NCBI GenBank assembly: GCA_043798985.1
Contig: JAZDOE010000008.1
Coordinates: 2,332-66,331, forward strand
Source of the DNA: Candidatus Falkowbacteria bacterium
GTDB lineage: Bacteria > Patescibacteriota > Patescibacteriia > UBA11705 > JACRDX01
Direction: 5' to 3'
Length of the DNA: 64,000 nucleotides
Shown piece by piece: positions 5,697-56,893 of the stretch (its first letter is position 1; each line of letters opens with the position of its first letter). A model generated the notes under the pieces. That model made no database searches. It was not told the origin of the DNA and was given only the letters and a program-made list of their open reading frames with translations. Both the position numbers and the translations under genes were made by a program.

Positions 5697-7648
5697 AGCC
5701 TTACATCAAAGTCGCTCTCCACAACGCCCTTGAATATTACACGATTTGGACTGATTTTCGTACCAATCGCAGGAATGCTTGGCACATTTTTTGGTAATGT
5801 TAAATCAAGCGAAACATCAATGCTCGGCAAACCAATTTGTTTTTGAATAATCAATGAATAGCCCAATTGCTTCAACTGCTCCTGCCAATTTTTTCCAAAT
5901 TTATACTTTATCATTATCACTTCACTTGTCTGCGGCTCAACATTTAAAAACAAACCAACAACCTTTTTATCCAGCTCATCGCTTACAACATAATCTGTAA
6001 TCTTTTTCCCGGAAATTTGCACATCTAAAATTTCAATATCCTTTGGCAAATAAACGCGTGTCCAGCTGCGATATCGCGTGACGAGCAAATCAAACTTTCC
6101 CTGATGATCATATTTAATTTTCAATTCAGCGCTGGGATTTTCAACATTCGCAGATAGCGTATACTGAATTGAACGTTTAACAAACGGATCTGTTTTCAAC
6201 GCTGCCAAATTCGCGTCAACCACCATTAAATAATCCCCAGCCGTCTTTTTAACTAACCCTGCCCACTCGTACTTTTTTGCCACTGCCTGCTGGATCGGAT
6301 CATTAAAATAAAAAACCATTTGTTTTTGTTCAACGCTGTTTTTCAAAGCCGTCGCCAGCTCACCGATTTTTGCCAAAGGCAATTTGAACAACCGTGTTTG
6401 CAGCTCTATGCCCAATTTACCGACAATAGACTTTCTTTCCTGAAAAGCAACGCCTTTTGTTTTATAGCCATATTCAACTTCGTATTGTAAAGTGTCAGTA
6501 AAATTGTCCGCAGTAAATTTCAAACCATCTACCTCAATCGGCCCGACAATTTTCAACAGACTGGCGATCATTGTTGGCGTCACGCCGATTACTCCGTCAA
6601 ATTTTTCCACTTCGCCTTTTTCAAGCGCGTAAAATTCCTCTACTTTTTTCGCTGATTCGCTAAAATCAGGCGACCAGTTTGCGTCGCGCATAAACCATTT
6701 TGGCTGGCTCATGTATTTTTTCATTGGTTCTGGCGATGGAATATTTAATGTCGCTTCGGATTTTTTGTCCAAATTATAAATGTTATCAGTGAAAAACTTT
6801 TCAATGTCCGCGTTTAAAACTTTGACCACGCCATAAGTCCCCAAAAATCCGCCGCCTGGCCGCATTTCGCTGTTGTTCATCAATAAAAACAAGTATGTTT
6901 TTTCACGCAAATATCCTAAAAATTCCGGCAAAAAATCGCTGGCCACTCTCAATTTTCCCGTTATATCGCCCAGCAAATAAATCTCGTTGCCAAGTTCCTC
7001 GTTCGCAAAAACGCCGCGCAACCAACTGTTCTGTTGGAAATTTTCAAATTCGTGTAGCGCGACTTGCATATTGTCGTCTGTTTTTTTCAAGTCTCCGGCG
7101 ACCGAATCCAACAATGACAAAAACTCTACCTTATTCTTTTCAGACAAATCACCAAAATTCTTAATGCCAACACCAGCAACCATCATTTTCTGTCCTATAT
7201 CTGTCAAATCAAACAACACACCAGAGACGCGCCTGATAGAATCTATTGTCGTCATCACCAAATTAATTTGCTCGCTCACCATTGGCGCTTGACTCAAAAA
7301 AGATTTTTTTAAAACATTCAGCTGCGCGTTAGCCTGTTCAAAATTCTTGCCTGCCAATTGGAATTTAACCTTTGCTGTATCCAAATTAAACTTCACGGCA
7401 TCGTTTTTGCCAGATTCAAGATATGCCTGCCCAATTTTTATTTGTCCATAGCCGGTTTTGATTGCTGAATAATATGGCGCGAAATTCAATGCGGCAATTA
7501 TTAAACAAATTATTCCAACAACTAACGCTGACAAAGCGCAGTACGCTAAAATCTTAAAAAACGCCAACAAAAAATTTCGTACGCTCACAAAAGATCCGCG
7601 GCGCGCGCGCTTTACTTCGCTTAATAAATCCACATTAAACGGCTCCAT
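5693..7648 (-). CDS. DUF4012 domain-containing membrane-anchored protein.
   Basis: 651 aa. N-terminal TM helix; the motif LLMNNSEMRPGGGFLGTYGVVKV matches the DUF4012 signature (NNAE(I/L)RPTGGFIGSYG). Confidence 0.55.
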   Translation of the reverse strand: MEPFNVDLLSEVKRARRGSFVSVRNFLLAFFKILAYCALSALVVGIICLIIAALNFAPYYSAIKTGYGQIKIGQAYLESGKNDAVKFNLDTAKVKFQLAGKNFEQANAQLNVLKKSFLSQAPMVSEQINLVMTTIDSIRRVSGVLFDLTDIGQKMMVAGVGIKNFGDLSEKNKVEFLSLLDSVAGDLKKTDDNMQVALHEFENFQQNSWLRGVFANEELGNEIYLLGDITGKLRVASDFLPEFLGYLREKTYLFLLMNNSEMRPGGGFLGTYGVVKVLNADIEKFFTDNIYNLDKKSEATLNIPSPEPMKKYMSQPKWFMRDANWSPDFSESAKKVEEFYALEKGEVEKFDGVIGVTPTMIASLLKIVGPIEVDGLKFTADNFTDTLQYEVEYGYKTKGVAFQERKSIVGKLGIELQTRLFKLPLAKIGELATALKNSVEQKQMVFYFNDPIQQAVAKKYEWAGLVKKTAGDYLMVVDANLAALKTDPFVKRSIQYTLSANVENPSAELKIKYDHQGKFDLLVTRYRSWTRVYLPKDIEILDVQISGKKITDYVVSDELDKKVVGLFLNVEPQTSEVIMIKYKFGKNWQEQLKQLGYSLIIQKQIGLPSIDVSLDLTLPKNVPSIPAIGTKISPNRVIFKGVVESDFDVRL

Positions 7649-8429
7649 GTTTTTTAATATATTTTATCCAACTTTTTATATGCTCACGAGTCAATTTATC
7701 AAATATGGCGCGCGCACCGCCCTTATCCGCCGACTGCCTGCGATGTAAGTGAATTACTTTCGCATCAGGAAAATAAACCACCCGTTTTCCCATTTGCCAA
7801 ATCCTACGACACAAGTCCGCGTCCTCAAAATACATGAAAAATTGTTCGTCAAACAACCCTGCCTCCATTAAAACATCTTTGCGCGCCAACCAGCAAGAAC
7901 CTTGCGCCCAGTCAATGTCGCGCGTGTCATTATGATCCCAATCAATCATCAAAAATCTGGCCAATTCTCGTTTACCCAATTTGGTTTTTCCCAAAATCGT
8001 TCTGCGGCAAAGCGGAGTTAATAATTTGTGTAATTTATAACAAGAATATTGCAAACTGCCATCTGGATTTAAAAGTTGTGGCGCAATAATTCCAACATCA
8101 TTGTGCGCTTTCAGATATTCCAGCATCTTATCTATGGCGCCCGGAAAAACAAAGATGTCAGGATTCATCAGCAAAATAAATTCACCTTTTGCGGCATTGA
8201 TCCCAATATTTGTGCCAGCCCCCATCCCTATGTTTTCTCCATTTTGGATATATCTGATTTCAGGATGAATCTCTTTCAAATATTCTTCCGCGCAATCTTG
8301 AGAATTATTATCAACAACAACTATTTCAAATGGCTCTGCAATTGCCGCTTCTTTAAGCCATTGAACACAATTTTTGATCAACCGCTTCATTTTGTAATTA
8401 ACTATCACGATAGAAATCATACAAACCAT
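7635..8429 (-). CDS. Glycosyltransferase family 2.
   Basis: ISIVIVNYK...VVVDNNSQD...ILLMNPD, a GT-A fold DXD-type signature. The true start may be the ATG at about 8420. Confidence 0.75.
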   Translation of the reverse strand: MVCMISIVIVNYKMKRLIKNCVQWLKEAAIAEPFEIVVVDNNSQDCAEEYLKEIHPEIRYIQNGENIGMGAGTNIGINAAKGEFILLMNPDIFVFPGAIDKMLEYLKAHNDVGIIAPQLLNPDGSLQYSCYKLHKLLTPLCRRTILGKTKLGKRELARFLMIDWDHNDTRDIDWAQGSCWLARKDVLMEAGLFDEQFFMYFEDADLCRRIWQMGKRVVYFPDAKVIHLHRRQSADKGGARAIFDKLTREHIKSWIKYIKKHGAV

Positions 8430-14110: not shown

Positions 14111-15847
14111 CTACATCATTTGTACTTCCTTTATATTTAATAATCGCAAACCTTTTGTCAATACGTCTTTAACGTTGTTGGATAAAAATAATCGCGCAGC
14201 CGCCAGCTCTGGGTTTTCGCCAATGACACGGCATTTTTGATAAAAATTGTTAAACAATTGTGACAAATCCAACAAATATTTGCACAAACCGCTTGGGTCT
14301 AACTCTATTTCGGCCTTTTTAACCGCGTCGTTAAACATTCCAATTTTCAAAGCCAATTCGCGCTCAATATTCTCAACCAGCAAATCCAATTTGCAATTCT
14401 TCTGCTTTAATTTAGCGGCAGATGCCTTTTCAAAAAGAGAGTTTATGCGCGCGATTGTATAAAGCACGTATGGGCCAGTATCGCCATCAAACGCAGTCGC
14501 CTTATCAATGTCAAAAACAATCACACTGTTATTTTCATATTTTAAAATCCAAAACTTTATTGCAGCCAACGCGAGTTTCGTTGAAACATCTTCAACTTGC
14601 CGCGTTGACCAATCTACATGCCGCGCGTTTGTTTCTGCTTTTGCTTTTTCCAAAACAGCGTTAAACAACGAATCAAATGAAACAACATTACCCTTTCGCG
14701 ACGCCATGGCGCCCTCTGGCAAAGTGACAAAATCATAGCTAACGTGCGCTTTTTCCTTTTTATCATAGCCTAGCAAGTCCAGCAACTTGAAAATTTGTTT
14801 TAAATACAATGACTGGCGGACATCAACTACGTAAATTGACTTGTCAATTTTATATTTTTCAAACTTTTTAATTCCCAATGGCAAATCTTTGGCGCCATAA
14901 AGAACATTACCGTCAGATTTTATCAAAACCAAAACATCCAAACCATATTCCTGCAAATCAGCTATTAACGCGCCTTCGCTCATTTTTACTTCTTTAATTT
15001 TTCCTTCCTTAACAATACGTGCTAACAATTTTCGCCCCTCTTTTTCCTCTGCGCTTTCCCAAAACCATTCGTCAAATTTATTGCCCAATATTCCATAAAT
15101 CTTATGAAAATCATCCATGCTCCATTTTTTTGTTTTTTTCCAAAGCGCTGTTGCTTTGCGCTCGCCAGCTTCCAAACGCTTTTGTACTTCAGCAATCTCA
15201 ACCATCAACTCTGGTTTTTCCGCCAACAAGTTAACAGCTTCAGAATAAACTTTTCCCAAATACTCCGCCTTATTTTTACCTTTTTCAATAATCAGCTTAG
15301 GATTATTTTTCTCCAAATACCATATACATTTTGCAACATGAACGCCTGTGTCGCCAATATAATTCGCAACAATCACCTTCTTTCCGGCTTCGCGCAAAAT
15401 ATTAACCACTGCCGCGCCAAGGCAGGCATTTCGCAAATGGCCGACATGAAATTCTTTGTGCGTGTTCGGCTGCGAATATTCAACCATAACCCTTTTACCA
15501 CCCGTAGAGACGAGATATATCTCGTCTCTACATTGCCTTGAACACAAAATTTGTTCAAGCAGCCATTTTCGCTTGAAAGTAAAATTCACATACGGCCCCA
15601 CAATCTTCAATTCCTCAATAAAATCTCCGCGCTTGTCATTTCGACCTCGCTTTAGCGAGGGAGAAATCCCTCGTAAAATTTCCGCCCCAACATCCATCGG
15701 AGACTTCTTCATCTTCTTCGCCAAATTAAAACACGGCAAAGCCAAATCACCCATTTTAATATCCGGCGGTGCGACAAAATCGCTTGCGCTGACATCAAAT
15801 CCCGCTTGTTGCAACAATTTTGCCAACTGTTCTTTAATTTTCTGCAT
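14111..15847 (-). CDS. argS: Arginyl-tRNA synthetase; the sequence carries two in-frame repeat insertions.
   Basis: HIGH-type motif EFHVGHLRNACLG and the DALR anticodon-binding C-terminus. Probable ATG start at 15847 (MQKIKEQ); the track ORF begins at a TTG at 15856. Confidence 0.9.
   Translation of the reverse strand: MQKIKEQLAKLLQQAGFDVSASDFVAPPDIKMGDLALPCFNLAKKMKKSPMDVGAEILRGISPSLKRGRNDKRGDFIEELKIVGPYVNFTFKRKWLLEQILCSRQCRDEIYLVSTGGKRVMVEYSQPNTHKEFHVGHLRNACLGAAVVNILREAGKKVIVANYIGDTGVHVAKCIWYLEKNNPKLIIEKGKNKAEYLGKVYSEAVNLLAEKPELMVEIAEVQKRLEAGERKATALWKKTKKWSMDDFHKIYGILGNKFDEWFWESAEEKEGRKLLARIVKEGKIKEVKMSEGALIADLQEYGLDVLVLIKSDGNVLYGAKDLPLGIKKFEKYKIDKSIYVVDVRQSLYLKQIFKLLDLLGYDKKEKAHVSYDFVTLPEGAMASRKGNVVSFDSLFNAVLEKAKAETNARHVDWSTRQVEDVSTKLALAAIKFWILKYENNSVIVFDIDKATAFDGDTGPYVLYTIARINSLFEKASAAKLKQKNCKLDLLVENIERELALKIGMFNDAVKKAEIELDPSGLCKYLLDLSQLFNNFYQKCRVIGENPELAAARLFLSNNVKDVLTKGLRLLNIKEVQMM
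15504..15531. repeat. Family B palindrome, copy B1 (GTAGAGACGAGATATATCTCGTCTCTAC), inside the argS CDS.
   Basis: Perfect 28-nt palindrome translated in frame as CRDEIYLVST. Related copies lie at 54489..54516 and 56058..56083. Confidence 0.65.
15645..15673. repeat. GC-rich double-hairpin segment (CCTCGCTTTAGCGAGG / CGAGGGAGAAATCCCTCG) inside the argS N-terminal region; probably another in-frame insertion.
   Basis: It encodes RGISPSLKRGRNDKRGD between the conserved ArgRS N-terminal blocks. Its GC content is far above the surrounding sequence. Confidence 0.35.
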
Positions 15848-17177: not shown

Positions 17178-20100
17178 TTACATTAAACCTTTTGTTTGTT
17201 CAAGAATCTTTTTTAATTTTTCTTTTGCCTCTGCCAATCTTGTTTTCTCCGCGGCGACAACTTTTTCCGGCGCGTTTTTTATAAATTCAACATTGCTTAA
17301 CTTTCTTTCCAGCCCGCCAATATAATTTTCCAAATTATCTTTTTCCTTTTCCAACCGTTGCTTTTCTTTTCCAGAATCAATCAATCCAGCAAGCGGCATA
17401 TAAATTTCAATTTTTCCAATAATTGCACAGGCCGCTTGCTCTGGCTTTCTTGAAACAAAATTCAAATTCTCAACTTTAGCTAACGCCTTTATTATGTTTG
17501 CCGCGTCTGCCAACGCCTTGCCACCAATAATTTCAATGTCGATTTTTTTTGCCAAATCAACTTTATGTTCAGCTCGCAAATTTCTTATTTTCGTCACAAC
17601 TTCAACAATCGCGGAAAATTCTTTATCAACTTTTTCGTTAATCAACTTCTTATCAACTTTTGGCCATTCCGCAACTATTAAATTCTCGCGAATGCCCCCG
17701 CTTGTCATCCTGAGGCTCTCGAAGGATGACCATATTGCCTCCGTCACAAACGGCGCGAATGGATGCCACAACTTCAACAAATCTTTCAATATACTCAACA
17801 AAATCGCGTCTTTGTTTTTTTCAACTTTGCTGATTTCCAAATACCAATCAGCAAAATCATTCCATGTAAATTCGCGCAACAATTCGCCTGCCGCAGAAAA
17901 ATTATATTCATCTAAAAACTTCGTGACATCTCGTTTTAAACAATTCAACCGCGACAAAATCCATCGATCTGCTAACGTCGCGCCTGTCATTTCGAACCCG
18001 CCCACGGCGGGTGAGAAATCCCTTGTAGTCGTCAGCACGAACCTAGAAATATTCCACAATTTATTAACCAAATTTCTGCATCCCTCAACTTTTTCTTCAA
18101 AAAATCTAATGTCATTGCCCGGCGTTGTGCCAATTAACAATGCCAACCGCGACGCATCTGCTCCATATTTTTCAATCATGTCCAACGGATCAATTCCATT
18201 GCCGCGCGACTTGCTCATCTTTTTGCCATTTTTATCAAGCACCATTCCGTGCAAATAAACTTTTTCAAAAGGAATTTCGCCAAGTGCAAAAAAACTCATC
18301 ATCACCATTCGCGACACCCACAAAGTAATAATTTCATAACCAGTTTCCAACATTTGCGTCGGATGAAACCTTGCAAGATCGCCGGTTTTATTCAGCGTTG
18401 AAAAAGTCCACATTCCGGACGAAAACCAAGTGTCCAAAGAATCTTCATCTTGCTTCAAATTGAACGAACCGCACGAGCAAACTGCCGGCGGTAATTTTAT
18501 ACGCACATCTTTCGCGTTGTCCGGATATGTTAATTTATAAATCTCCAAATCGCTCAAATTTGTATTAAATCCTTTTACCACACGGGCAACATCGCCATGC
18601 GCCACCGCCAAAATTTTCTTGCCTGGATATTTTTTCGCGACTTCATCAAAAAAGGAAAAAACTCGTGATTTTAAACTATCAAATGACTCAATGCCTCGCG
18701 GAGAGTCATGATGCCACGCTTCAAAATCTTTTTTGCGAAACGCGCCCAATTCTTTGTCAGATTTTCCCTCAAACTCACCCATACCAACCTCGCGCAACCG
18801 TTTATCAAAAATTATTTTCTTGATTCCCAATTTGCCTGCCACGATTTTGGCGGTTTCCTGCGCTCTCTTAAAATCCGATGAAAAAATAATGTCTATTTTT
18901 TCTGCAAGCAACTCTTCCGCGACGGAAACAGATTGCGCTTTTCCTTTTTCTGTCAAACCATTTTCTTGATTTTTTATGTCAGAATTTAATTTGTCTTCAA
19001 CGTTGCTGCGCGATTCGCCATGCCGCAAAACGATAATTTCCGTATTTAATTTTTCAGTCACTTTAACTTCATTGCATTTTTCGCAATACCAAACAGGAAT
19101 TCTATGACCAAACCAAATCTGTCGGCTGATGCACCAATCCTGCATATTTTTCATCCAATCCAAATATCTCTTTTCAAATCTCTCCGGAATAAACTCAATC
19201 GCATGTTTTTCAGCGGCTTCAATCGCTTTTTCTTTCAAAGATTTGTTGCCTAATTTTTTAATCTTTTTATCAACCGCGACAAACCATTGTTTGCTTGGCA
19301 ATGGCTCAATCGCTGTGCCACAACGATAACAAATGGATAAATTATTATCTATTTCTTCTTCTTTTTCCAACAAATTCTGCGCGCGCAACCTTTCAACAAC
19401 CATTTGGCGCGCGCCCAAAACATCTTTTCCAGAATATTCTCCAAAATTTTCTTTAATTTTTCCATTCTCATCAATTACTTTTACAACTTCCAAATTGTTC
19501 GCCCGCGCCATTTGCCAATCAACAATGGAATGCGCGGGCGTTACGCCGAGCGCTCCGGTGCCGAAATTCATATCAACCTGCCAATCACCAATGATTTTAA
19601 TTTTAAGCGGCACACCGACAAAATCAACGCTAAATTCTTTGCCAATATATTTTTTATAGCGCTCGTCTTTCGGATTTACCGCGACAGCAGTGTCGCCAAG
19701 TTTTGTTTCCGGCCGAGTCGTGGCAATTGTAATCGGAAAATTTTTATTGTATTTAAAAGTATAAAGTTTTGCTTTTTGCTCCTGATATTCCACTTCGTCA
19801 TCGGCCAAAGTTGACTGGCATCGCGGGCACCAATTTACCACTCGTTCGCCACGATAAATCACACCTGAATCATACATATCCGCGAACATTTTTGCCACAG
19901 CCTTTATCCGCGGCTCATCTAATGTAAAAGCCTGCCGCGACCAATCCAAAGACGCGCCCATTTTCTTTATTTGATGCAAAATGGTTGTTTGCGTTTCTCT
20001 CAAAAACTCCCAAACTTTTTCCAAAAATTTTTCGCGCCCCAAATCATGCCGCGTCTTTTTTTCTTCTTTCCATAATTGCTTTTCCACAACATTTTGCGTG

Positions 20101-21729: not shown

Positions 21730-21806
21730 TGGTGGTCGCACCTGGGCTCGAACCAGGGACCTTTCGGATGTGAACCGAACGCTCTAACCAGCTGAGCTAT
21801 GCGACC
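21730..21806 (-). tRNA. tRNA-Val (anticodon CAC), with CCA encoded.
   Basis: Reverse complement GGTCGCATAGCTCAGCTGGTTAGAGCGTTCGGTTCACATCCGAAAGGTCCCTGGTTCGAGCCCAGGTGCGACCACCA. Confidence 0.8.
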
Positions 21807-22038
21807 TTTGTAAATATTTTTCTACTCGTTTCCTTAAATATCCTCGGCCAAAACCCGTTTTTAATTGTCGCTCCCTTTTCATTGCATCGTCCTTCACTAA
21901 ACATACCTCGTAATACGCCATCTCTATGCTCCCCATCCTGATCGTAGTGTGCGTTTTGCCCGAGAGATGCTCTGCCAATCTCCTTTCTAAGTTCCCTGTA
22001 CATCCAACATAAAACCTATCTAAATCTTTGCTATACAT
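21784..22038 (-). CDS. Small GIY-YIG nuclease-domain protein (UPF0213 / YhbQ-like, about 84 aa). Its reading frame runs into the 5' part of tRNA-Val(CAC).
   Basis: From the internal ATG at 22038: MYSKDLDRFYVGCTGNLERRLAEHLSGKTHTTIRMGSIEMAYYEVCLVKDDAMKRERQLKTGFGRGYLRKRV, which shows the GIY..YIG..R..H..E fold hallmarks. The stop codon is the TAG in the tRNA D-loop (GGTTAG). Confidence 0.6.
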   Translation of the reverse strand: MYSKDLDRFYVGCTGNLERRLAEHLSGKTHTTIRMGSIEMAYYEVCLVKDDAMKRERQLKTGFGRGYLRKRVEKYLQRSHSSAG

Positions 22039-22045
22039 ACCACAT

Positions 22046-22162
22046 ATCTTTTGCGCTCCCCGCCCAAAGCCCGAAGGGCATTGTGGCGGGCCCGCCAGAC
22101 TGCGAAGCTGTCGGCGGGTAACCAGCCCCAAGGGGGCCCCTTCGGGGCTGAGCTATGCGACC
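22046..22162. mobile_element. GC-rich structured element followed by a 16-nt duplicate of the tRNA-Val(CAC) 5' end. It forms the terminal portion of a tRNA-linked insertion.
   Basis: CCCCGCCCAAAGCCCGAAGGGCATTGTGGCGGGCCCGCC...CCCCAAGGGGGCCCCTTCGGGGC, then GCTGAGCTATGCGACC, the reverse complement of tRNA nucleotides 1-16. The motif is homologous to 44692..44897 and 46596..46672. Confidence 0.45.
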
Positions 22163-22782: not shown

Positions 22783-22960
22783 TTGGTGGGCACAGATGGA
22801 CTTGAACCATCGACCCCCGCCTTACCCGCCTGCCAGAGTCTGTGGGCGCAACTGGACTCGAACCAGTGACCCCCGCCTTATAAGGGCGATGCTCTAACCA
22901 GCTGAGCTATGCGCCCACAGACGGCGGGCAGGTAAGGGCGGTGCGGCTATGTGCCCATTA
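22783..22960 (-). other. Composite tRNA locus: a complete tRNA is embedded between the two halves of a tRNA-like sequence. The outer 5' acceptor strand GGGCACA and the outer 3' half with T-arm and CCA are complementary, and the flanks are imperfect inverted repeats.
   Basis: The reverse complement of 22783..22846 is ...GGCGGGGGTCGATGGTTCAAGTCCATCTGTGCCCACCA, a perfect T-arm plus acceptor plus CCA. The reverse complement of 22948..22954 is GGGCACA. Flanks CCGCCTTACCCGCCTGCC and GGCGGGCAGGTAAGGGCGG are near inverted repeats. Confidence 0.3.
22843..22916 (-). tRNA. tRNA with anticodon TAT, Ile-type and unusual in bacteria. It is the inner gene of the composite locus.
   Basis: Reverse complement GGGCGCATAGCTCAGCTGGTTAGAGCATCGCCCTTATAAGGCGGGGGTCACTGGTTCGAGTCCAGTTGCGCCCA. 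Anticodon stem TCGCC/GGCGG, loop CTTATAA. Confidence 0.55.
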
Positions 22961-44691: not shown

Positions 44692-44897
44692 GTAAATTGT
44701 GTTCCCCGCCCAAAGCCCAAATGGCATTGTGGCGGGCCCGCCTGCTTGCCGCCCTTGGCGGCTGGCGGCGGGTATCCATTGAACTACGAGAGGGTAAATT
44801 GTGTTCCCCGCCCAAAGCCCAAAGGGCATTGTGGCGGGCCCGCCTGCTTGCCGCCCTTGGCGGCTGGCGGCGGGTATCCATTGAACTACGGGAGGGG
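44692..44897. repeat. Two tandem 102-bp direct repeats, each made of a GC-rich structured element plus a 22-nt copy of the tRNA-Arg 5' end (acceptor and D-arm).
   Basis: TATCCATTGAACTACGAGAGGG occurs at about 44671, 44773 and 44875. The GC segment shares CCCCGCCCAAAGCCC-AA-GGCATTGTGGCGGGCCCGCC with 22046..22085. The four overlapping ORFs in the track are artefacts of the repeat. Confidence 0.7.
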
Positions 44898-46145: not shown

Positions 46146-46424
46146 ATGGCAAAAAAACTATACGTTGGTGGACTTCCATACACTACCAATGAGGAACGTT
46201 TGAAAGAATTTTTCTCACAGGCAGGTACAGTCGCATCAACAGCGGTCATCATGGACAAAATGACAGGCCGATCAAGAGGTTTTGGTTTCGTTGAAATGGC
46301 TACTGACGAAGAAGCGTTGAACGCTGTAAAGATGTTCAATGGCGCTGAAATGGACGGTAGAAAAATCATCGTGAATGAGGCAAGAGAAATGGAAGAAAGA
46401 AAACCAAGAACAAACAATTGGTAA
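46146..46424 (+). CDS. RNA-binding protein with a single RRM (RNP-1/RNP-2).
   Basis: KLYVGGLPY (RNP-2) and RGFGFVEM (RNP-1). Confidence 0.8.
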   Translation: MAKKLYVGGLPYTTNEERLKEFFSQAGTVASTAVIMDKMTGRSRGFGFVEMATDEEALNAVKMFNGAEMDGRKIIVNEAREMEERKPRTNNW

Positions 46425-46442
46425 AAATCCAATAAAAAATTT

Positions 46443-46471
46443 CCCCTGTCGAATGACGGGGGAGTTTTTTT
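46443..46471 (+). terminator. Rho-independent terminator after the RRM gene.
   Basis: Hairpin CCCCTGTCGAATGACGGGGG followed by TTTTTTT. Confidence 0.7.
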
Positions 46472-46488
46472 ATTTCAAAGGTAGAAAA

Positions 46489-46562
46489 TCGGGGTGACCC
46501 GACTTGAACGGGCGACCTCACGCACCCGAAGCGCGCGCTCTAGCCAACTGAGCTACACCCCG
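46489..46562 (-). tRNA. tRNA-Pro (anticodon CGG).
   Basis: Reverse complement CGGGGTGTAGCTCAGTTGGCTAGAGCGCGCGCTTCGGGTGCGTGAGGTCGCCCGTTCAAGTCGGGTCACCCCGA. Confidence 0.75.
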
Positions 46563-46595
46563 AGTTTCTACCCCACGAAAAAATGAGTACCTTTA

Positions 46596-46672
46596 CCCCG
46601 CCATCGGCGGGGCGAAGCGTGCGCGCTACCAACCCCAACGGGGCCCCTTCGGGGCCGCGCTAATCCCCGAAA
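46596..46672. repeat. Degenerate third copy of the tRNA-linked GC-rich element, upstream of tRNA-Pro(CGG).
   Basis: On the minus strand: CGGGGATTAGCGCGG (a degenerate tRNA-Pro 5' fragment) followed by CCCCGAAGGGGCCCCGTTGGGGTTGGTA. Compare GGTCGCATAGCTCAGC + CCCGAAGGGGCCCCCTTGGGGCTGGTTA at the tRNA-Val locus. Confidence 0.4.
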
Positions 46673-46885
46673 AAAAACTCCCCGCTGACGTCGTTCCGGC
46701 TTTGCGCCAAATGGTCGCGAATCCGCGACGCTGGTGGCCGCTCGCTAAGTCCAAAAACCCAACGAATGTAGCCTCCTATGTTGAACGATGACCCAGAATT
46801 TGCCAGCAAGGAGCTATTTTTATTATACCAAACAATCCACAAAAATAAAAAAATGCCCTTGCTAATTTTTAGCAAGAGCTGCTCT

Positions 46886-47671
46886 CTATTTCTCCGGCAC
46901 CTTTTCTCCATACACACCATTAACCGGGTGCATAGAATCAAAGCGCATCAACAGCATGCCATGCGTACTGCGCCCAAAGTCAAACCGTTCATTCCCTCCG
47001 CCAACTTTGTCGAAGCAGAGAGCGTTCCCTTGGTCAAAAAACGTCATGCCCCGCGCAAGGGAAAATCCGACCGCAGCATACACCAATGCCCGCGCAGTCG
47101 GAACAATCTCTCTTTCAACACTACCCGCTGGCAGTGTCGTCTTGCCAATCAACCGCCAGCAAGGCGCAGCCGCTTTGGCAGTAAACCCAAAGACAAATGG
47201 CTCTCGCTCAAACACGCTCGCCTGATCCACGTGATGAAACAACGATATGTTTGTTTCAAAAAGCTGCTTGATTGAGATGCCGAGATCAGCGACAAGCACA
47301 TGCGTGTGCTGGTATTTCAACAACTCTTCAAGCGAGTATGGGATCTTTTCCAACGCTGTGAAAACTTCGGGCGACGGCGCAGCTCCAAGAAAAATGATCG
47401 CCTCTTCCAACCCGAAAAAATGGCGCGCCATTGCCTGCCGCGCTGCCCAATGGCTGGCTGGTCTTTGTCGCGTCTCTGTCTTGCGAGTCGCAGGATCAGT
47501 CACCGGAATGTTTCCGTCCATGATGCGTTGCCGCAAAGCAATCTCATCCAGCGCTTCTTTAGCCGAATTAACAAACAACGCGCTCGGCTTTTCCATGACC
47601 ACCCCCCTTGTTTGCAATAGCCAATTCAAAGAACAACGCCCTATCTTAGCATTCAATTTTAAAATCGTCAA
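46886..47671 (-). CDS. Hypothetical protein in a GC-rich island; family not recognised.
   Basis: 261-aa ORF with a probable internal start MEKPSALF at 47596. GC content and codon usage differ from flanking genes. Confidence 0.35.
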   Translation of the reverse strand: MTILKLNAKIGRCSLNWLLQTRGVVMEKPSALFVNSAKEALDEIALRQRIMDGNIPVTDPATRKTETRQRPASHWAARQAMARHFFGLEEAIIFLGAAPSPEVFTALEKIPYSLEELLKYQHTHVLVADLGISIKQLFETNISLFHHVDQASVFEREPFVFGFTAKAAAPCWRLIGKTTLPAGSVEREIVPTARALVYAAVGFSLARGMTFFDQGNALCFDKVGGGNERFDFGRSTHGMLLMRFDSMHPVNGVYGEKVPEK

Positions 47672-48290: not shown

Positions 48291-48410
48291 ACACTAAATC
48301 CGAAACAAGCACGAAATTCGAATTTTCCAATGTTTGAAATATTCTGATTTCGTATTTTAAATTTGTTTAGGATTTCGGATTTCGTATTTATTTATTAATC
48401 CAAGTTTAAC
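48291..48410. repeat. Intergenic AT-rich repeat unit R1 (CGAAAC ... AAACAAGCACGAAATTCGAAT ... GATTTCGTATTT).
   Basis: Homologous to 51283..51400. The arms are inverted: CGAAACA... versus ...TGTTTCG-type. Confidence 0.55.
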
Positions 48411-51282: not shown

Positions 51283-51400
51283 ATTCGAAGCACGAAACAC
51301 GAAACCCTAAACAAGCACGAAGCACGAAATTCCAATGTTTCAATATTGGAACATTCTAATTTCTAATTTGTTTCGTATTTCGATATTCGGATTTCGAATT
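51283..51400. repeat. Intergenic AT-rich repeat unit R2.
   Basis: Shares AAACAAGCACGAAG...CGAAATTCCAATGTTTCAATATT...TTTCGTATTTCGATATTCGGATTTCGAATTT with R1. Confidence 0.55.
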
Positions 51401-52465
51401 TTAAAATATTTTCTGTAAGAACCTATATATTCCCAATTGAACCGGTTGGTAAATTTTTTCATAAGTCCCGACATATTCAACAATTTCCGCAGTCGGCGAA
51501 AATCCCATTTTGAACTTCGTGAATCCCGCCCAGTTTTCCAGTCTTCCGGTTGCATCTTGCGGCGCGACACCCCAAAAATCATAAAACCAAAATCCGTCAC
51601 GTTTCGCGTCTTTTATTGCCTGCCATTGCAACAAATATGGAGCCATGGCATTGCGAAAATCATGGTCAGACGCGCCAAATAAATATGTTGCCGTGTTATC
51701 CCAAAAAATCACAATATTTGCCGCGATAATTTTTCCTTCCAACTTTGCAACATACAATTTGACAAATGGAACTTTCAGAAGTTCCTTAAAATAATCTTGT
51801 CCGTAAAATTTTATTTTCTGTCGCGCTTCTGTTTTTTTCTCAAGTTCGTAAAATTCTTTAAACATTAAATTGTCCACCACAATTTCAACCCCGCGTTTTT
51901 TTGCCACGCCAATGTTGTATCTGGTTTTTTCGTGCATTTGTTTTAACAAATTTTCTTCGTCCCCGCGCAAATCCAACATTAACGTATGTCTCGGTAAAAT
52001 ATCTTTTTCGCATTTTACAAACCCCATTTCATCAAAAATCCCACACCAACTCTTATCTTCTGAAAACGGGTCAATCTGAAACGCCATCGCCCCTTCCTGC
52101 TTCGCAATCTTATCTATTTCCTGCATGATCATTTTTGTGATTTCGGATTTAGAATTTGTTTCGGATTTCGGATTTCGAATTTCGGACTTTATAACTGGAC
52201 CTCGTGGAGAGTAAAGAATGCTTCGTCCCAATTTCGCTTTTGATTCAAACAAAAACACGACAGCGCACCATTCTTTATCACTTTGAGCGCTGTCGCCCTG
52301 AGCTTGTCGAGGGGTCACCTCAACAATCAATCTCCAAATTTTTTCATTTTGCGTATTCAAAAAATCACCCCATTCCCATGATTGAGTAAATCCGCCGGTA
52401 TCATTTTCTTTCACAAAATCATTCCAGCGCTCTTTATCCTCAATTGTTGCGTAGCTAATCGTCAT
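51401..52465 (-). CDS. FemAB-family protein (peptidoglycan interpeptide-bridge aminoacyltransferase-like). It carries two in-frame repeat insertions.
   Basis: FemAB-type sequence SWEWGDFLNTQ...ILYSPRGP... The inserted segments encode KSEIRNPKSETNSKSEITK (the atttcgg repeat, 52141..52200) and PRQAQGDSAQ (family A, 52292..52318). Confidence 0.55.
   Translation of the reverse strand: MTISYATIEDKERWNDFVKENDTGGFTQSWEWGDFLNTQNEKIWRLIVEVTPRQAQGDSAQSDKEWCAVVFLFESKAKLGRSILYSPRGPVIKSEIRNPKSETNSKSEITKMIMQEIDKIAKQEGAMAFQIDPFSEDKSWCGIFDEMGFVKCEKDILPRHTLMLDLRGDEENLLKQMHEKTRYNIGVAKKRGVEIVVDNLMFKEFYELEKKTEARQKIKFYGQDYFKELLKVPFVKLYVAKLEGKIIAANIVIFWDNTATYLFGASDHDFRNAMAPYLLQWQAIKDAKRDGFWFYDFWGVAPQDATGRLENWAGFTKFKMGFSPTAEIVEYVGTYEKIYQPVQLGIYRFLQKIF
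52292..52318. repeat. Family A palindromic element, copy A2 (variant GTCGCCCTGAGCTTGTCGAGGGGTCAC), inside the FemAB-like CDS.
   Basis: Same architecture as 17704..17730, with compensatory stem changes. Confidence 0.5.
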
Positions 52466-52588: not shown

Positions 52589-53665
52589 CTACTTGCCCGC
52601 CTCTACCGAGGCGGGCGAGAGCGCGACCAACCCACCCGCGAAACTGCCACGAGCACCATCAAGACTCTGACTGCCATAGAAGTAAGCGTCATCACCATCG
52701 GCAAAGCAAAAGAGCGACCAGCCGCGCCACGCAAGCGCTGCCATGTCATAGCACGGCGTCTTGTTGTCCCGCAGCAGTTCTGCCGCGTACATACTCATTG
52801 CTGCCAGCGTATCCAATCCGCCTGCAAGCATGAACATTTCCGGCAAGGTTTCCATCTGCTCTCTGTCTGCATTGATGGAATATCCCTGCAGCGCGGTCGG
52901 GAAGTAAATCCCCACCACCGGCTCCTTACTTGCCGCTTCCAACACTCTCTCATGTCTGCTTCCCGCCCAGATTGTCACTTCTCCGGCAAGCTGCCCCGTG
53001 ATATTGTTGTGGAAGGGACGGTTGGGAAACGCCTTCGTGTATGCTCTTGCCACTGTTGGCACAAGCACCTTGTCCAGCTTTGCCCCGTAGTTTGCCGCCG
53101 TCACGCCAAGCCCTGCCGGAATGCAGAACGGGTACCATGCGCCTTTCAGCACATTCTTAACCGTTTCATCTGCTTCAATCTTCTGCACTAAAGCGTTGAT
53201 GCGCAGTGCGAACTCTTCGGCAGACACAAACTCCAACTTCTCGTCGACAAATGCTTCTTTCGCAAGCACCAATCTTTCGGCAAAGGACAACCGCTCTATC
53301 CGCGTCGGATAGTAACCGTAATTCGCGTCGCATACCGAGCTTCTCATTCCGGTCGGTGGGATTCTGCGGCCATTCTTGTCATAGACCAGCGTTGGCGTCG
53401 GCTCTATCACCATCTCGTTTGGCCCCATGAAAATCGCGTGCATTTCACCCGACAGCAAACAATCAACCACCGATTCCCCAAGCTTGTTCTCCAACAGCTC
53501 AAGATGCCCGAGCGTTCTCTGAGGATACTTGGCAGGATCTCCGGACCGCTTCATCTGCGTGAGCGTTGCCAGCACCGCATCTGCGCCACCGTGCAAAGCC
53601 ACGTAATCCACGATATCCGCGACCGTCAACTTCTTCCACCCGTCACAACTCATAGCATCCTCCAT
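52589..53665 (-). CDS. Conserved hypothetical protein, GC-rich, paralog 1 of a duplicated gene.
   Basis: 358 aa. The C-terminal 260 aa are about 85-90% identical to 54516..55466 (for example LEAASKEPVVGIYFPTALQGYSINADREQM, AAELLRDNKTPCYDMAALAWRGWSL). No family recognised. Confidence 0.5.
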   Translation of the reverse strand: MEDAMSCDGWKKLTVADIVDYVALHGGADAVLATLTQMKRSGDPAKYPQRTLGHLELLENKLGESVVDCLLSGEMHAIFMGPNEMVIEPTPTLVYDKNGRRIPPTGMRSSVCDANYGYYPTRIERLSFAERLVLAKEAFVDEKLEFVSAEEFALRINALVQKIEADETVKNVLKGAWYPFCIPAGLGVTAANYGAKLDKVLVPTVARAYTKAFPNRPFHNNITGQLAGEVTIWAGSRHERVLEAASKEPVVGIYFPTALQGYSINADREQMETLPEMFMLAGGLDTLAAMSMYAAELLRDNKTPCYDMAALAWRGWSLFCFADGDDAYFYGSQSLDGARGSFAGGLVALSPASVEAGK

Positions 53666-54401: not shown

Positions 54402-54488
54402 ACATACAAATAATACATCACAACCAATATTTTTTCAATCTTCTGAAATTAAAATAGGGAATGTTGTTTCAACATTCCCAAATTCTCC

Positions 54489-54516
54489 GTAGAGCCGAGA
54501 TATATCTCGGCTCTAC
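54489..54516. repeat. Family B palindrome, copy B2 (GTAGAGCCGAGATATATCTCGGCTCTAC), abutting the stop codon of paralog 2.
   Basis: Perfect palindrome; differs from B1 by a compensatory A/T to C/G change. Confidence 0.6.
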
Positions 54517-55466
54517 TACGCGAGGGCGACCAAACCGCCGGCGATATAGTCATAAGCACCCGCAAGACGCCGACCGTCACGGAAGAAGGCAGAAACATCA
54601 TAAGCATAGCAATCGAGCGACCAGCCGCGCCAAGCGAGCGCTGCCATGTCATAGCACGGCGTCTTGTTGTCGCGCAGCAGTTCTGCCGCGTACATACTCA
54701 TTGCGCACATGGTATCCAACCCACCTGCAAGCATGAACATTTCCGGCAAGGTTGCCATCTGCTCTCTGTCTGCATTGATGGAATATCCCTGCAGCGCGGT
54801 CGGGAAGTAAATCCCCACCACCGGCTCTTTGCTTGCCGCTTCCAGCACCCTCTCATGCCTGCTTCCCTGCCAAATCGTCACTTCTCCGGAAAGCTGACCG
54901 TTGAGATTGTTGTGGAAGGGACGATTGGGAAACGCCTTCGTGTATGCTCTTGCCACTGCCGACAAAAGCACCTTGTCCATCTTATCCCCGTAGTTTGCCG
55001 CCGTCACTCCGAGCCCTCCGGGGATGACGAACGGGTACCATGCGCCTTTCAGCACGTTCTTAATCGTTTCGTCCGCCTCAATCTTCATTACCAGCGCATT
55101 GATGCGCTCAAAAAACTGCTCAACGGACACGAACGTCAGCGACTTGTCATTGAACACCTCCTGCGCCAATTTCAGCTTCGCGCCAAACGGCAACTGCTCA
55201 AGTCGCGTCGGGCAGTAACCATAGTTCGCGTCGCACACCGAACTTTTCATCCCCTGCGGCGGGATTCTGCGCCCGTTCTTGTCATAGACCAGCGTCGGCG
55301 TCGGCTCTATCACCACCTCATGCGTCTTGTCACCCTGAGGCTCTCGAAGGGCGACCACTCTGACCGTCAGCTCGCCGTTCGCAATTTTGCGCGCAATTTC
55401 CGTGCCACCGAGACGATTCAACAATGCTTCGTCCTCATTGCGCATCCAGTCACCATACTTTCCCAT
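54516..55466 (-). CDS. Conserved hypothetical protein, GC-rich, paralog 2; its N-terminus contains a family A palindrome insertion.
   Basis: 316 aa; VVALREPQGDKTHEV is encoded by 55329..55355. Confidence 0.5.
   Translation of the reverse strand: MGKYGDWMRNEDEALLNRLGGTEIARKIANGELTVRVVALREPQGDKTHEVVIEPTPTLVYDKNGRRIPPQGMKSSVCDANYGYCPTRLEQLPFGAKLKLAQEVFNDKSLTFVSVEQFFERINALVMKIEADETIKNVLKGAWYPFVIPGGLGVTAANYGDKMDKVLLSAVARAYTKAFPNRPFHNNLNGQLSGEVTIWQGSRHERVLEAASKEPVVGIYFPTALQGYSINADREQMATLPEMFMLAGGLDTMCAMSMYAAELLRDNKTPCYDMAALAWRGWSLDCYAYDVSAFFRDGRRLAGAYDYIAGGLVALA
55329..55355. repeat. Family A palindromic element, copy A3 (GTCACCCTGAGGCTCTCGAAGGGCGAC).
   Basis: In-frame within paralog 2. Confidence 0.55.
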
Positions 55467-55624: not shown

Positions 55625-56893
55625 TTACACAATTTTCCTGCGCAACAATGTCATTTCCGGAACATTTTTATTTATTTCCAAATAAATTTCCTGCTTTTGC
55701 CCACCATGTGCTTCTTTTATCCGTTTCATATCTTTATCAAAAATCTTTGTAATTTTTTGTTTAAAAACTTTACCCACTGGTGGTACGAACTCAATCTCAT
55801 CACCCACAAAAATCTGATTATGCACCAAAACTTTAATTATTCGCAGATTAGTAACATTCGAATGATTCGTAGCTTCGTAGCCACCAACAACTTCGCCGCA
55901 AAACTCCCATTCGCACGTTTCATGGCTCGCGTCTGTTTTTTGCCCTTGCCACGCCGAAGCTCCGCGAAGGCGGGCGCATTTTTCCTTTCCAAATAAAAAT
56001 CCTGTTGTAAATCCGCGGTTCTGATATTTTTTTAATTCTTTAATATAATATTTATCCAGAGACGAGACATGCCTCGTCTCTACAAGAGAATCAATTGCCG
56101 CGCGATAAACTTTTGTCACGCCGGCAACATAATAAATACTTTTTGACCGGCCCTCAATTTTAAACGACGAAATGCCGGCTTTTGCCAAATCTCTCAAATA
56201 TTCAACCAAACACAAATCTTTTGAATTCATAATATAACTCCCGCTATCATCCTCTTCAATCAACAACACTCTGTCATGCTGAGGCTCTCGAAGCATCTTA
56301 TAACTCCATCTGCATGGCTGCGTGCAATCACCGAGATTTGCGCTTCGTTTTGTAAAAAACTGCGACAACAAACAACGGCCAGAATATGACATGCACATTG
56401 CGCCATGGACAAAACATTCCAGCTCAACTTTTGGCGCGGCTTTGTGGATTTTTTTAATTTCTTCCAGCGTGGTCTCGCGCGCCAAAATGACGCGCGAGAC
56501 ACCTTGCCGCGCCCAAAATTTCGCAGACTCTGAATTTATACAATTTGCTTGCGTTGAAAGATGGATATTCGCTTTTGGCCAGATCTTTTTTATTAAAACC
56601 AACACACCCGGATCAGAAACAACTAAAGCATCGGGTTTTACTGTCCGCAACCATTTAATATGTTCTGCCAATTTTGCGAAATGTTTTTCACGCGGAAAAA
56701 TGTTCAAAGTTATGTAGACTTTTTTATTGCGCGAGCGCGCGAAGTCAATTCCTTGATGCAATGTTTTTAAATTAAAATCATTCACTCGCGCGCGCAAAGA
56801 AAAATCAGGGATGCCGCAGTAAACCACGTCAGCCCCAAATTCAATCGCGTATTTTAATTTTTTCAAACTCCCTGCTGGTGAAATCAGCTCCAT
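55625..56893 (-). CDS. Peptidase U32 family protein (PrtC / RlhA-like). It carries at least four in-frame repeat insertions.
   Basis: MELISPAGSLKKLKYAIEFGADVVYCGIPDFSLRARVNDFNLKTLHQGIDFARSRNKKVYITLN is canonical U32. Insertions: C2 at 55840..55883 (TNHSNVTNLRIIK), D2 at 55949..55976 (ARLRGASAWQG), B3 at 56058..56083 (ETRHVSSL) and A4 at 56273..56297 (MLREPQHD). Confidence 0.7.
   Translation of the reverse strand: MELISPAGSLKKLKYAIEFGADVVYCGIPDFSLRARVNDFNLKTLHQGIDFARSRNKKVYITLNIFPREKHFAKLAEHIKWLRTVKPDALVVSDPGVLVLIKKIWPKANIHLSTQANCINSESAKFWARQGVSRVILARETTLEEIKKIHKAAPKVELECFVHGAMCMSYSGRCLLSQFFTKRSANLGDCTQPCRWSYKMLREPQHDRVLLIEEDDSGSYIMNSKDLCLVEYLRDLAKAGISSFKIEGRSKSIYYVAGVTKVYRAAIDSLVETRHVSSLDKYYIKELKKYQNRGFTTGFLFGKEKCARLRGASAWQGQKTDASHETCEWEFCGEVVGGYEATNHSNVTNLRIIKVLVHNQIFVGDEIEFVPPVGKVFKQKITKIFDKDMKRIKEAHGGQKQEIYLEINKNVPEMTLLRRKIV
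55840..55883. repeat. Copy C2 of the 44-nt repeat, in frame inside the U32 CDS.
   Basis: TTCGCAGATTAGTAACATTCGAATGATTCGTAGCTTCGTAGCCA; compare C1 at 12531..12574. Confidence 0.6.
55949..55976. repeat. Family D GC hairpin, copy D2 (CCACGCCGAAGCTCCGCGAAGGCGGGCG).
   Basis: Shares GCCGAAGC...CGAAGGC with 58059..58086 in ileS. Confidence 0.45.
56058..56083. repeat. Family B palindrome, copy B3 (AGAGACGAGACATGCCTCGTCTCTAC variant).
   Basis: Same arms as B1 with a different central loop (ACATGC versus ATATAT). Confidence 0.5.
56273..56297. repeat. Family A palindromic element, copy A4 (GTCATGCTGAGGCTCTCGAAGCATC).
   Basis: The central CTGAGGCTCTCGAAG is conserved; the stem is changed compensatorily (ATGC/GCAT). 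Confidence 0.5.

Follow-up and report, generated by a model that had tools for sequence, protein, structure and literature searches.

The Rickettsia palindromic elements (RPEs), reportedly described by Ogata et al. in 2000, are short selfish palindromes present in many copies per genome. They lie in intergenic DNA, in RNA genes and in frame within conserved protein genes, where they add a surface peptide, and no associated transposase is known. The subject of this article is a 22-bp palindrome of similar habit, found in 64 kb of DNA (64,000 nucleotides, called the window throughout) from a metagenome-assembled genome (MAG) of Candidatus Falkowbacteria, within the candidate phyla radiation (CPR, or Patescibacteria). 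There it splits the remains of a tRNA-Pro(CGG) gene that lie upstream of an intact gene with the same anticodon. I call it the double-hairpin element (DHE) and propose that the locus is the scar of a tRNA-gene replacement, colonized by a mini-palindrome of the RPE kind, an explanation that I consider likely.

Like the RPEs, the DHE is a repeated palindrome, it inserts in frame while leaving the open reading frame (ORF) open, and it is polymorphic for presence and absence. Unlike them, it is 22 to 24 bp long (about 8 codons) rather than roughly 100 to 150 bp, consists of two 4-bp GC hairpins and nothing else, has one and the same sequence in many CPR lineages and in some other phyla, whereas RPEs are confined to one genus, and is strongly tied to tRNA remnants and to ORFs for GIY-YIG proteins. 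Double-hairpin elements are also a feature of Allomyces mitochondria. Mitochondrial double-hairpin elements and GC clusters make a second comparison (PMC4478555): they too are GC-rich mini-palindromes, with one or two hairpins, set in AT-rich genomes, polymorphic for presence and absence, intergenic, and placed beside tRNA genes, rRNA genes and mobile ORFs, and no mobilizing mechanism is known for them. Those elements are organellar, whereas the 22-mer is bacterial, smaller, shared across genomes and found also in frame in proteins.

Repetitive extragenic palindromes (REPs) and bacterial interspersed mosaic elements (BIMEs), mobilized by the tyrosine transposase RAYT, a Y1 HUH enzyme, are likewise imperfect palindromes of 20 to 40 bp in many extragenic copies, and in both cases the hairpin matters, as the covarying stems of the DHE indicate. 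REPs are species-specific, whereas the DHE is the same across species and lies inside genes. It has no 5' tetranucleotide of the GTAG type: neither GTAG nor GTGG flanks it, and the only preference is for G at -1 and C at +1. The window showed no RAYT gene, though no systematic search for one was made. Miniature inverted-repeat transposable elements offer no better fit, as the DHE has neither a target-site duplication nor a known parent element. Integrative elements that target tRNA genes leave a partial tRNA copy beside a complete, functional tRNA upon insertion, and, according to published surveys of their integrases, it is the 3' part of the tRNA that is duplicated. Here, in contrast, the duplicated part is the 5' segment, the insert amounts to about 130 to 360 bp, no integrase accompanies it, and a whole different tRNA can sit nested in the old one. 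The final comparison is with SegB of phage T4, a free-standing GIY-YIG homing endonuclease whose gene lies in a tRNA cluster and for which there are signs of preferential inheritance or replacement of the tRNA region (PMC2330249). A tight linkage of nuclease and tRNA is also found at a tRNA-Val locus of the window and at 7 of 7 loci of homologous nucleases. Unlike SegB, the proteins here have about 85 amino acids, with the catalytic domain and no DNA-binding domain. Their ORF is joined to the tRNA at its 5' end, a partial tRNA duplicate with hairpin inserts accompanies it, the DNA is chromosomal DNA of CPR bacteria, and the tRNA-Pro locus has no nuclease at all.

The tRNA-Pro(CGG) locus

The gene order at this locus is conserved among relatives: ComEC, a metallo-beta-lactamase, NDK, variable DNA and tRNA-Pro(CGG). 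The relatives compared (L120, L121, L118, L119 and L140) were reached via the neighboring NDK gene. Their closeness may be judged from the NDK protein, 93% identical to that of the window in L120 and 88% in L121, and from an RRM protein that is 100% identical in L140. From 46669 downward the minus strand of the window reads CGGGGATTAGCGCGG, CCCCGAAGGGGCCCCGTTGGGG, TTGGTAGCGCGCACGCTTCG, CCCCGCCGATGGCGGGG, a 33-nt leader and tRNA-Pro(CGG), with the following parts.

46671-46814, minus strand: candidate structured RNA of about 145 nt, with an extended -10 box, TGGTATAAT, at 46822-46830 and a terminator at 46855-46879
46669..46655, minus strand: positions 1-15 of the old tRNA-Pro, CGGGGATTAGCGCGG; the orthologous site in L120 and L121 reads CGGGGATTAGCGCAG
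46633..46654, no strand assigned: the DHE, a 22-bp double-hairpin palindromic mini-element, CCCCGAAGGGGCCCCGTTGGGG, interrupting the D-loop of the old tRNA; L120 and L121 have an empty site
46632..46613, minus strand: positions 16-35 of the old tRNA-Pro, truncated within the anticodon, TTGGTAGCGCGCACGCTTCG; collinear with TTGGTAGCGCGCACGC of L120 and with tRNA-Pro genes generally
46612..46596, minus strand: GC hairpin CCCCGCC-GAT-GGCGGGG, forming the left junction of the replacement
46563..46595, minus strand: leader of the replacement tRNA, of which GGTAGAAACT (46563-46572) pairs with the trailer
46562..46489, minus strand: intact replacement tRNA-Pro(CGG), found by ARAGORN and scored at 57.6 bits by Rfam in a focused run
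46480..46488, minus strand: trailer TTTTCTACC, right arm of an inverted repeat and right border of the replaced segment, placed by homology with L140 and by its pairing with the leader

Positions 46613-46669 of the minus strand are the 5' half of a tRNA-Pro(CGG), positions 1-35, with the D-loop split by the 22-bp double hairpin. When the 22-mer is left out, its flanks align as one continuous tRNA 5' half, comprising acceptor strand, D-arm, anticodon stem and CTTCG. The same sequence is found uninterrupted in two relatives. In L120, CGGGGATTAGCGCAGTTGGTAGCGCGCACGC, which is the window fragment without the 22-mer, begins directly past the conserved element of about 145 nt and runs to the end of the contig. 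In L121 the same position is occupied by CGGGGATTAGCGCAGTTGGTA (old positions 1-21), after which come CCCCCCCCACCAAT, an intact tRNA-Pro(CGG) of different sequence and TTGGTGGGGGG. Both have CGGGGATTAGCGCAG joined to TTGGTA directly past the same RNA-like element, with no 22-mer between. Because the tRNA 5' sequence occurs without the 22-mer in two relatives, the fragment is, as the alignments have it, the remnant of the ancestral resident tRNA-Pro(CGG) gene, the 22-mer an insertion into its D-loop, and the intact gene a replacement. Nor is the fragment a decayed copy of the present gene, because the two differ by compensatory changes in the D-stem (GCGC/GCGC, self-consistent, in the old gene; GCTC/GAGC in the intact one) and by incompatible acceptor positions 6-7. 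Positions 46596-46669 would then be a non-functional scar that holds the 5' half of the locus's former tRNA gene, and this is the probable account.

A comparison of filled and empty sites at the one orthologous position compared gives a net gain of 22 bp, plus an A to G substitution adjacent to it in old positions 1-15, with no target-site duplication between them. The window has two copies of the DHE, this one and another at 22126-22147 upstream of tRNA-Val(CAC), although shuffles of the window lead one to expect 0.00 copies, and the two agree at 21 of 22 positions. It is built of two 4-bp GC hairpins and has no stop codon in any of six frames.

The right border of the exchange is set by L140, whose homology with the window resumes immediately after 46480, at TTTGAAATAAAAAA. 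The present tRNA came on a segment of about 130 bp (46480-46612), to judge by these junctions. It differs in sequence from the old gene and from the genes at the same locus in L121, L118 and L140, and the locus has a fourth tRNA-Pro(CGG) sequence in L118, L119 and L140. In the present gene, leader and trailer pair in a helix (9 Watson-Crick pairs and one mismatch) that prolongs the acceptor stem, and the gene of L121 is bracketed by a 12-bp inverted repeat. Such extension of the acceptor stem is bimodal over 65 tRNAs from the window and the fetched loci (examples are 46480-46572 of the window, 1879-1980 of L121 and 695-768 of L101): it amounts to at most 3 bp in 56 of them and to 6 to 19 bp in 9. 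Five of the 9 are tRNA-Pro, and at least 5 were judged replacements (Pro and Ile of the window, Pro of L121, Phe and Gly of L096).

The GC hairpin at the left junction belongs to a motif, CCCGCC-N3-6-GGCGGG, found 3 times in the window against 0 expected. It shares its outer stem with double hairpins of about 60 nt, called B below, at the tRNA-Val and tRNA-Arg loci, a likeness that at such a length cannot prove homology.

These results bear on a preliminary description of the locus, made from the window sequence, which saw there a degenerate third copy of a tRNA-linked GC element. All the parts it ordered along the minus strand upstream of tRNA-Pro(CGG) are where it put them. The likeness of the 5' fragment to tRNA-Pro is real, though closer and longer than supposed: 11 of 15 positions match rather than 10, and the match goes on past the insert to the anticodon loop. 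The head of the element, however, is a perfect member of its family, and what may be called degenerate is just the second part of about 60 nt known from the Val and Arg loci, which here is missing or cut to a single hairpin.

Two observations on the surroundings may be added. In L118, inverted repeats of about 130 nt (6158-6290 and 7850-7975) enclose a stretch of about 1.4 kb directly downstream of tRNA-Pro(CGG); it has no called gene, and by eye an ORF on the opposite strand resembles a recombinase. This segment could be invertible or mobile, at the same hypervariable locus. A run of Rfam over the whole window at gathering thresholds omitted tRNA-Pro(CGG), which resembles a filter artifact and is relevant to tRNA counts.

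Sister loci and GIY-YIG ORFs

The window, with a G+C content of about 41%, carries 11 tRNA genes, all on the minus strand, of which 4 (Pro, Val, Arg and Ile) are accompanied by remnants of older copies.

21784..22162, minus strand: tRNA-Val(CAC) locus, with the DHE at 22126-22147, B at 22059-22118 and a GIY-YIG ORF at 22038..21784
44692..44895, minus strand: tRNA-Arg(CCG) locus, two tandem 102-nt units, 99% identical, upstream of the intact tRNA
22784-22956, minus strand: nested tRNA-Ile(TAT), the intact gene (22842-22916) lying inside an older tRNA-Ile

At the Val locus the order is old positions 1-15, the DHE, positions 16-22, a 60-nt B, GAGCGC and the GIY-YIG ORF, whose stop codon falls inside the intact tRNA-Val. 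The ORF (22038..21784) matches the Pfam GIY-YIG family at 8.5e-13, and a premature TAG (22033..22031) breaks its conserved N-terminus, MWYV. Translation might restart at 22038. The state of the reading frame suggests that this copy is probably in decay. Each Arg unit consists of a leader, tRNA-Arg positions 1-21, a 68-nt double hairpin of type B and positions 22-28 (repeat families D4, D5 and D14), while the functional copy of the gene has no hairpin. Of the older tRNA-Ile there remain a 5' part at 22933-22956, which has lost the D-arm, and a 3' half at 22784-22824, complete with CCA. Compensatory changes in the acceptor and T stems set the nested gene apart from the older one. The insert is flanked by GC arms, CCTGCCCGCC and GGCAGGCGGG, homologous, in inverted order, to the arms of a nested tRNA-Gly in L096.

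The B hairpins have compensatory changes in 6 of 20 base pairs across 8 copies. Their window form, with a CGGG/CCCG junction between the hairpins, is absent from the loci that were selected by their DHE, and B and DHE are therefore separate families. An independent sample of GIY-YIG homologues (L132-L139), chosen without regard to the DHE, has the ORF ending in the 5' part of an intact tRNA at 7 of 7 loci. At 5 of these there is a 5' tRNA fragment upstream, in 4 cases with B at D-loop position 21/22, and at 2 loci there are downstream old copies with B-type inserts in the D-loop or anticodon loop. The GIY-YIG proteins, of about 85 amino acids, comprise the catalytic domain only. The Pro locus has no GIY-YIG ORF.

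The pattern is repeated in two other genomes. At 5100-6300 of L096 (Falkowbacteria, JACRDY010000068) lies a tRNA cluster, Ile-Phe-Pro-Gly, in which old 5' and 3' halves enclose new tRNAs for Phe and Gly, and an old 5' fragment lies upstream of Pro and of Ile. These remnants contain the 22-mer, a CCCGCC...GGGCGGG palindrome of about 110 nt in the D-loop and double hairpins of about 56 nt in the T-loop. At 6800-7700 of L020, a 588-kb contig labeled Roseivirgaceae (Bacteroidota), there are tandem units of about 363 nt, each with a GIY-YIG ORF and a tRNA-Ser-like pseudogene. In this pseudogene the anticodon loop contains a DHE and the T-loop a 22-nt variant of it, TGCCCAAGGCATCCCTTTGGGA.

The idea that hairpins are retained to break up a direct repeat that could otherwise delete the cassette was rejected as their main cause: B at 21/22 leaves a 21-nt repeat uninterrupted.

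The 22-mer in other genomes

An exact-pattern scan with one genome per species found the 22-mer at 116 or more loci in 67 or more assemblies. The counts in this section hold among the matches listed. By label, 46 of the assemblies are CPR and 16 belong to other phyla, including long Bacteroidota contigs; some of the non-CPR labels may come from mis-binning. The collection of viral genomes contained no copy. A Berkelbacteria MAG, VFKW01, has at least 12 copies and several other MAGs have 6 to 8. Variant copies keep the hairpins by covariation of the stems (TCCC...GGGA).

Association with tRNA genes is pronounced: 28 of 116 copies (24%) lie within 350 nt of one, while control positions do so in 3.5% of cases (odds ratio 8.9, p = 2e-15). 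When a copy lies no more than 400 nt upstream of a tRNA gene, its flanks usually match that same tRNA from within the first five positions (22 of 27 copies). These tRNAs are of many kinds (among them Val, Ser, Pro, Gly, Ala, Ile, Phe and Asn), and the insert, which takes either orientation relative to the tRNA, is mostly in the D-arm. Both the enrichment beside tRNA genes and the repeated architecture of 5' fragment, GC element and complete tRNA had been anticipated from the window by the preliminary description, and the latter recurs widely. Between the fragment that bears the DHE and the intact cognate tRNA there is often a small GIY-YIG nuclease ORF, and 15 of 118 copies have such an ORF within 150 nt.

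The DHE is not confined to tRNA genes. One copy (L091, 3398-3418) occupies the spacer between the 23S and 5S rRNA genes in a Peribacteria MAG, whose 23S gene also has a group I intron. At 28 of 116 sites a long ORF reads through the element. Among the conserved proteins that contain it in frame are UvrA, DnaG, PheT, DnaX (in two genomes), Fpg, DprA, YajQ, a beta-CASP RNase, an RlmI-like methyltransferase and a glycosyltransferase.

L036, L071, L049, L044, L097, L111, L045, L019, L003, L031, L089: 22-mer copies in frame, adding about 8 residues each

The octapeptides include xPKGAPSG, xPEGAPLG, xPKGPLRG and PQRGPFGG. They fall in linkers between domains or in regions where solved homologues are 7 to 8 residues shorter: compared with those structures, UvrA has 8 additional residues at the site of the DHE and DnaG has 7.

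At none of the 118 sites are the bases flanking the DHE direct repeats. They favor G at -1 and C at +1, the commonest junction being AG/CT (12 of 118). Two ideas about insertion were rejected. A 2-bp target duplication does not account for net insertions of 22 as against 24 bp, the flanks lacking direct repeats, and the DHE does not land at the apex of pre-existing palindromes, the complementarity of its flanks (3.4%) not being enriched over the control (2.4%). As an observation on other repeats, AT-rich simple repeats of 7 to 8 nt flank the 22-mer in other CPR genomes.

Searches of the accessible literature found no description of the 22-mer, of the peptides it encodes or of the nested tRNA genes. 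A published study of insertions in CPR rRNA genes has a coverage that does not extend to tRNA genes or to these hairpins (PMC11270868).

The GC-rich ORF and other neighbors

The ORFs around 46-48 kb encode NDK, a protein nearly without relatives (the ORFan), the RRM protein and RimK.

46886..47671, minus strand: GC-rich ORFan of 261 amino acids from a TTG start, or 236 from ATG in the annotation of the MAG

The ORF from 46886 to 47596 is 100% identical to NCBI protein V1902_01770. The preliminary description called the protein unrecognized, and so it is: there is no match in Pfam and one homologue, distant, with 34% identity. It also gave the surrounding island a G+C content of about 55%. The value for the ORF is 51% (55% at third codon positions), which lies at z = 1.9 relative to 45 ORFs of the window, whose mean is 42%; the composition is atypical nonetheless. 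L120 retains a remnant of about 130 nt, the product of an internal deletion rather than a clean empty site, and L121 lacks the ORFan while keeping the tRNA fragment, neither of the two having the 22-mer. The ORFan may well be acquired DNA.

The candidate RNA between ORFan and fragment (46671-46814) folds at z = -5.2 and has 4 compensatory pairs among the window, L120 and L121. It ends in a 13-bp terminal helix followed by a U-run, and it has no match in Rfam. Since the tRNA of L120 begins directly past the U-run, the 3' end of this RNA may once have been made by RNase P cleavage. A metagenome scan with the 3' end of the element, CCGGAACGACGTCAGCGGGG, gave chance matches in GC-rich genomes only.

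Elsewhere in the window, two GC-rich (56%) paralogous ORFans with no match in Pfam (52589-53665 and 54516-55466, minus strand) flank RuvA. In L118 RuvA is followed directly by FemAB, and for that reason the two ORFans look like further insertions. There are several small repeat families, one with sites at 15502-15531, 54487-54516 and 56054-56083, one at 17701-17732, 52289-52320, 55326-55357 and 56270-56301, and one at 48310-48389, 51354-51401 and 52135-52182. They include the perfect palindrome CCGTAGAGACGAGATATATCTCGTCTCTAC, hairpins of the form GTCATCCTGAGG...GGATGAC and AT-rich simple repeats of 7 to 8 nt.

Alternative explanations

The DHE might be thought to mark where the ORFan island was integrated beside a tRNA gene, in the manner of genomic islands and prophages, as the preliminary description suggested. 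A partial tRNA copy next to a full one is what attachment (att) sites look like, and the ORFan is atypical in composition, almost an orphan and patchy among relatives. I regard this as quite improbable. The duplicated part is the wrong half of the tRNA; there is no integrase in the window, near 46-48 kb or elsewhere, and no att-like direct repeats bound the ORFan, which is not between fragment and tRNA. It does not even lie immediately beyond the fragment, as was claimed: the conserved RNA-like element of about 145 nt, common to the window, L120 and L121, and a terminator intervene. Judging by the distribution in relatives, the presence of the ORFan does not track the fragment or the DHE, and the DHE does not mark its boundary. 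A marker of integration sites is likewise not expected in an rRNA spacer and in frame in protein genes. What does survive of the claim is that DNA has been exchanged at the locus, because the tRNA gene itself was replaced. A more skeptical possibility is that the similarities are due to chance, to low-complexity GC-rich sequence or to faulty assembly at a repeated tRNA. MAG assemblies do break at tRNA repeats, and the contig of L120 ends inside a tRNA. That this explains the data is extremely unlikely, in view of two copies in a window where shuffles give 0.00, the same 22-mer in assemblies from many unrelated projects and assemblers, in-frame copies placed at linkers or where solved homologues are 7 to 8 residues shorter, and flanks of the Pro copy that align base for base with two independent relatives.

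Two other explanations assign the hairpins or the fragment a function in RNA. If the hairpins were cis-elements of the tRNA-Pro unit, serving as a processing site, as a terminator or insulator, or to stabilize the precursor, one could understand why they lie in a transcribed leader in the orientation of the tRNA, why other copies occupy the 23S-5S spacer and the 5' untranslated regions of GIY-YIG ORFs, why the stems covary in variant copies, and why a subset of tRNAs has leader-trailer helices that are potential processing stems. But the orthologous leaders of L120 and L121 do without the element despite having the same upstream RNA and tRNA-Pro, the DHE is found in both orientations relative to tRNAs, and no such role is possible for copies in frame in proteins. 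A scan of 46380-46920 for promoters and terminators found none between fragment and tRNA. Rfam over 46563-46830 found nothing significant even at E values up to 10, and over the whole window tRNAs only. The 109-nt leader, fragment and hairpin together, folds no better than shuffled sequences (z = -0.03), which gives no support to a dedicated RNA structure. A cis-acting function is on balance unlikely. Very unlikely, I think, is that the upstream piece belongs to a functional tRNA that is either split, like those of Nanoarchaeum, or interrupted by an intron, like the archaeal tRNAs with D-loop introns, the 22-mer being removed from the RNA. It is true that tRNA loops contain the inserts (the D-loop at this locus, anticodon and T-loops in L020 and L096) and that some nested tRNAs are surrounded by GC-rich complementary arms. 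Against this, there is no partner to supply a 3' half: the fragment ends at position 35 and is followed by a hairpin and a complete tRNA, an intact gene with the same anticodon. The outer tRNA-Ile of the window has no D-arm. In silico excision of the 22-mer restored a complete tRNA, as judged by ARAGORN, at 0 of 118 sites among the matches listed. Bacteria, moreover, are not known to have the archaeal endonuclease that splices at bulge-helix-bulge motifs.

Proposed mechanism

Comparison with relatives shows that two events disrupted the old gene. In one, a 22-bp GC-only double hairpin inserted into its D-loop. In the other, the segment of about 130 bp took the place of everything from the anticodon onward, bringing the GC hairpin and a different, complete tRNA-Pro(CGG) between the arms of a short inverted repeat. 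The DHE would be a tiny, non-autonomous selfish insertion element of the kind represented by RPEs and mitochondrial GC clusters, spreading within and between CPR genomes and persisting where it does no harm: in intergenic repeats, in rRNA and tRNA spacers, in surface loops of proteins, where it adds about 8 codons in frame, and especially in the loops of dead tRNAs.

The replacement would be one instance of a recurrent process, in which tRNA genes are overwritten or duplicated by cassettes that carry an intact tRNA, often together with a gene for a GIY-YIG protein of about 85 amino acids at its 5' end. Such cassettes would have to bring or duplicate an intact tRNA, because only events of that sort survive. 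The displaced halves would become neutral DNA in which hairpin elements accumulate, and the Pro locus would be a product of the process that lacked the nuclease or has lost it by decay. Dead fragments make up a tiny share of a genome and about one-fifth of the copies among the matches listed, which suggests that the DHE prefers the loops of tRNA genes, or D-arm DNA. The preference may reflect the nature of tRNA genes, which are prone to form hairpins and are heavily transcribed. The element might be mobilized by a hairpin-specific single-strand transposase acting in trans, by capture at DNA breaks, or by the minimal GIY-YIG nuclease, if this is specific for structure.

Several considerations weigh against this model. 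The contig of L120 stops at tRNA position 31, so that the intact ancestral gene has been inferred and not seen. The tie between the Pro locus and nuclease cassettes would run through the Val locus and other genomes, and classical sequence-specific homing seems doubtful for proteins that appear to have the catalytic domain only. The comparative loci were chosen by an exact 21-base pattern, and the frequencies drawn from them are conditional estimates. The net insertion is 22 bp here, as against 7 to 8 residues in protein genes, which leaves the unit and its junctions incompletely defined. No transposase or other mobilizing enzyme was identified for the DHE, whose insertion may have preceded or followed the replacement. 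A role of the hairpins at the level of RNA, in the processing or stability of tRNA precursors, is compatible with part of the evidence.

A broader view, which I advance tentatively and would not wager on at even terms, is that CPR bacteria and some others harbor a two-tier selfish system aimed at tRNA genes, previously undescribed, made up of cassettes and hairpin elements. In the first tier, a GIY-YIG ORF fused to a tRNA, or a bare tRNA bracketed by inverted repeats, would overwrite the cognate resident and leave nested dead halves, with an unusually fast turnover of tRNA-gene sequences between close relatives as a consequence. In the second, the 22-bp DHE and the B element of about 60 nt would enter the single-stranded loops (D, anticodon and T) of tRNA-gene DNA, the DHE additionally entering essential proteins in frame. 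The DHE would possibly be mobilized by a structure-specific GIY-YIG nuclease, or be recombinogenic for it.

Significance

The presence of DHEs and remnants of older tRNA genes has practical consequences for annotation. Programs that find tRNAs miss the fragments, GIY-YIG ORFs overlap tRNA genes, and the octapeptides encoded by the DHE will pass for lineage-specific protein insertions.

As a probable bacterial counterpart of the RPEs of Rickettsia, the DHE makes the mobility of mini-palindromes testable through a candidate nuclease with which it co-occurs. If the two-tier view were true, it would rank as about the smallest mobile element known to spread horizontally. Although almost every tRNA gene of CPR bacteria is essential and present in a single copy, these genes appear to be a battlefield of selfish DNA. 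That one locus holds four different tRNA-Pro(CGG) sequences in close relatives bears on how tRNA identity evolves and on the horizontal movement of tRNA genes.

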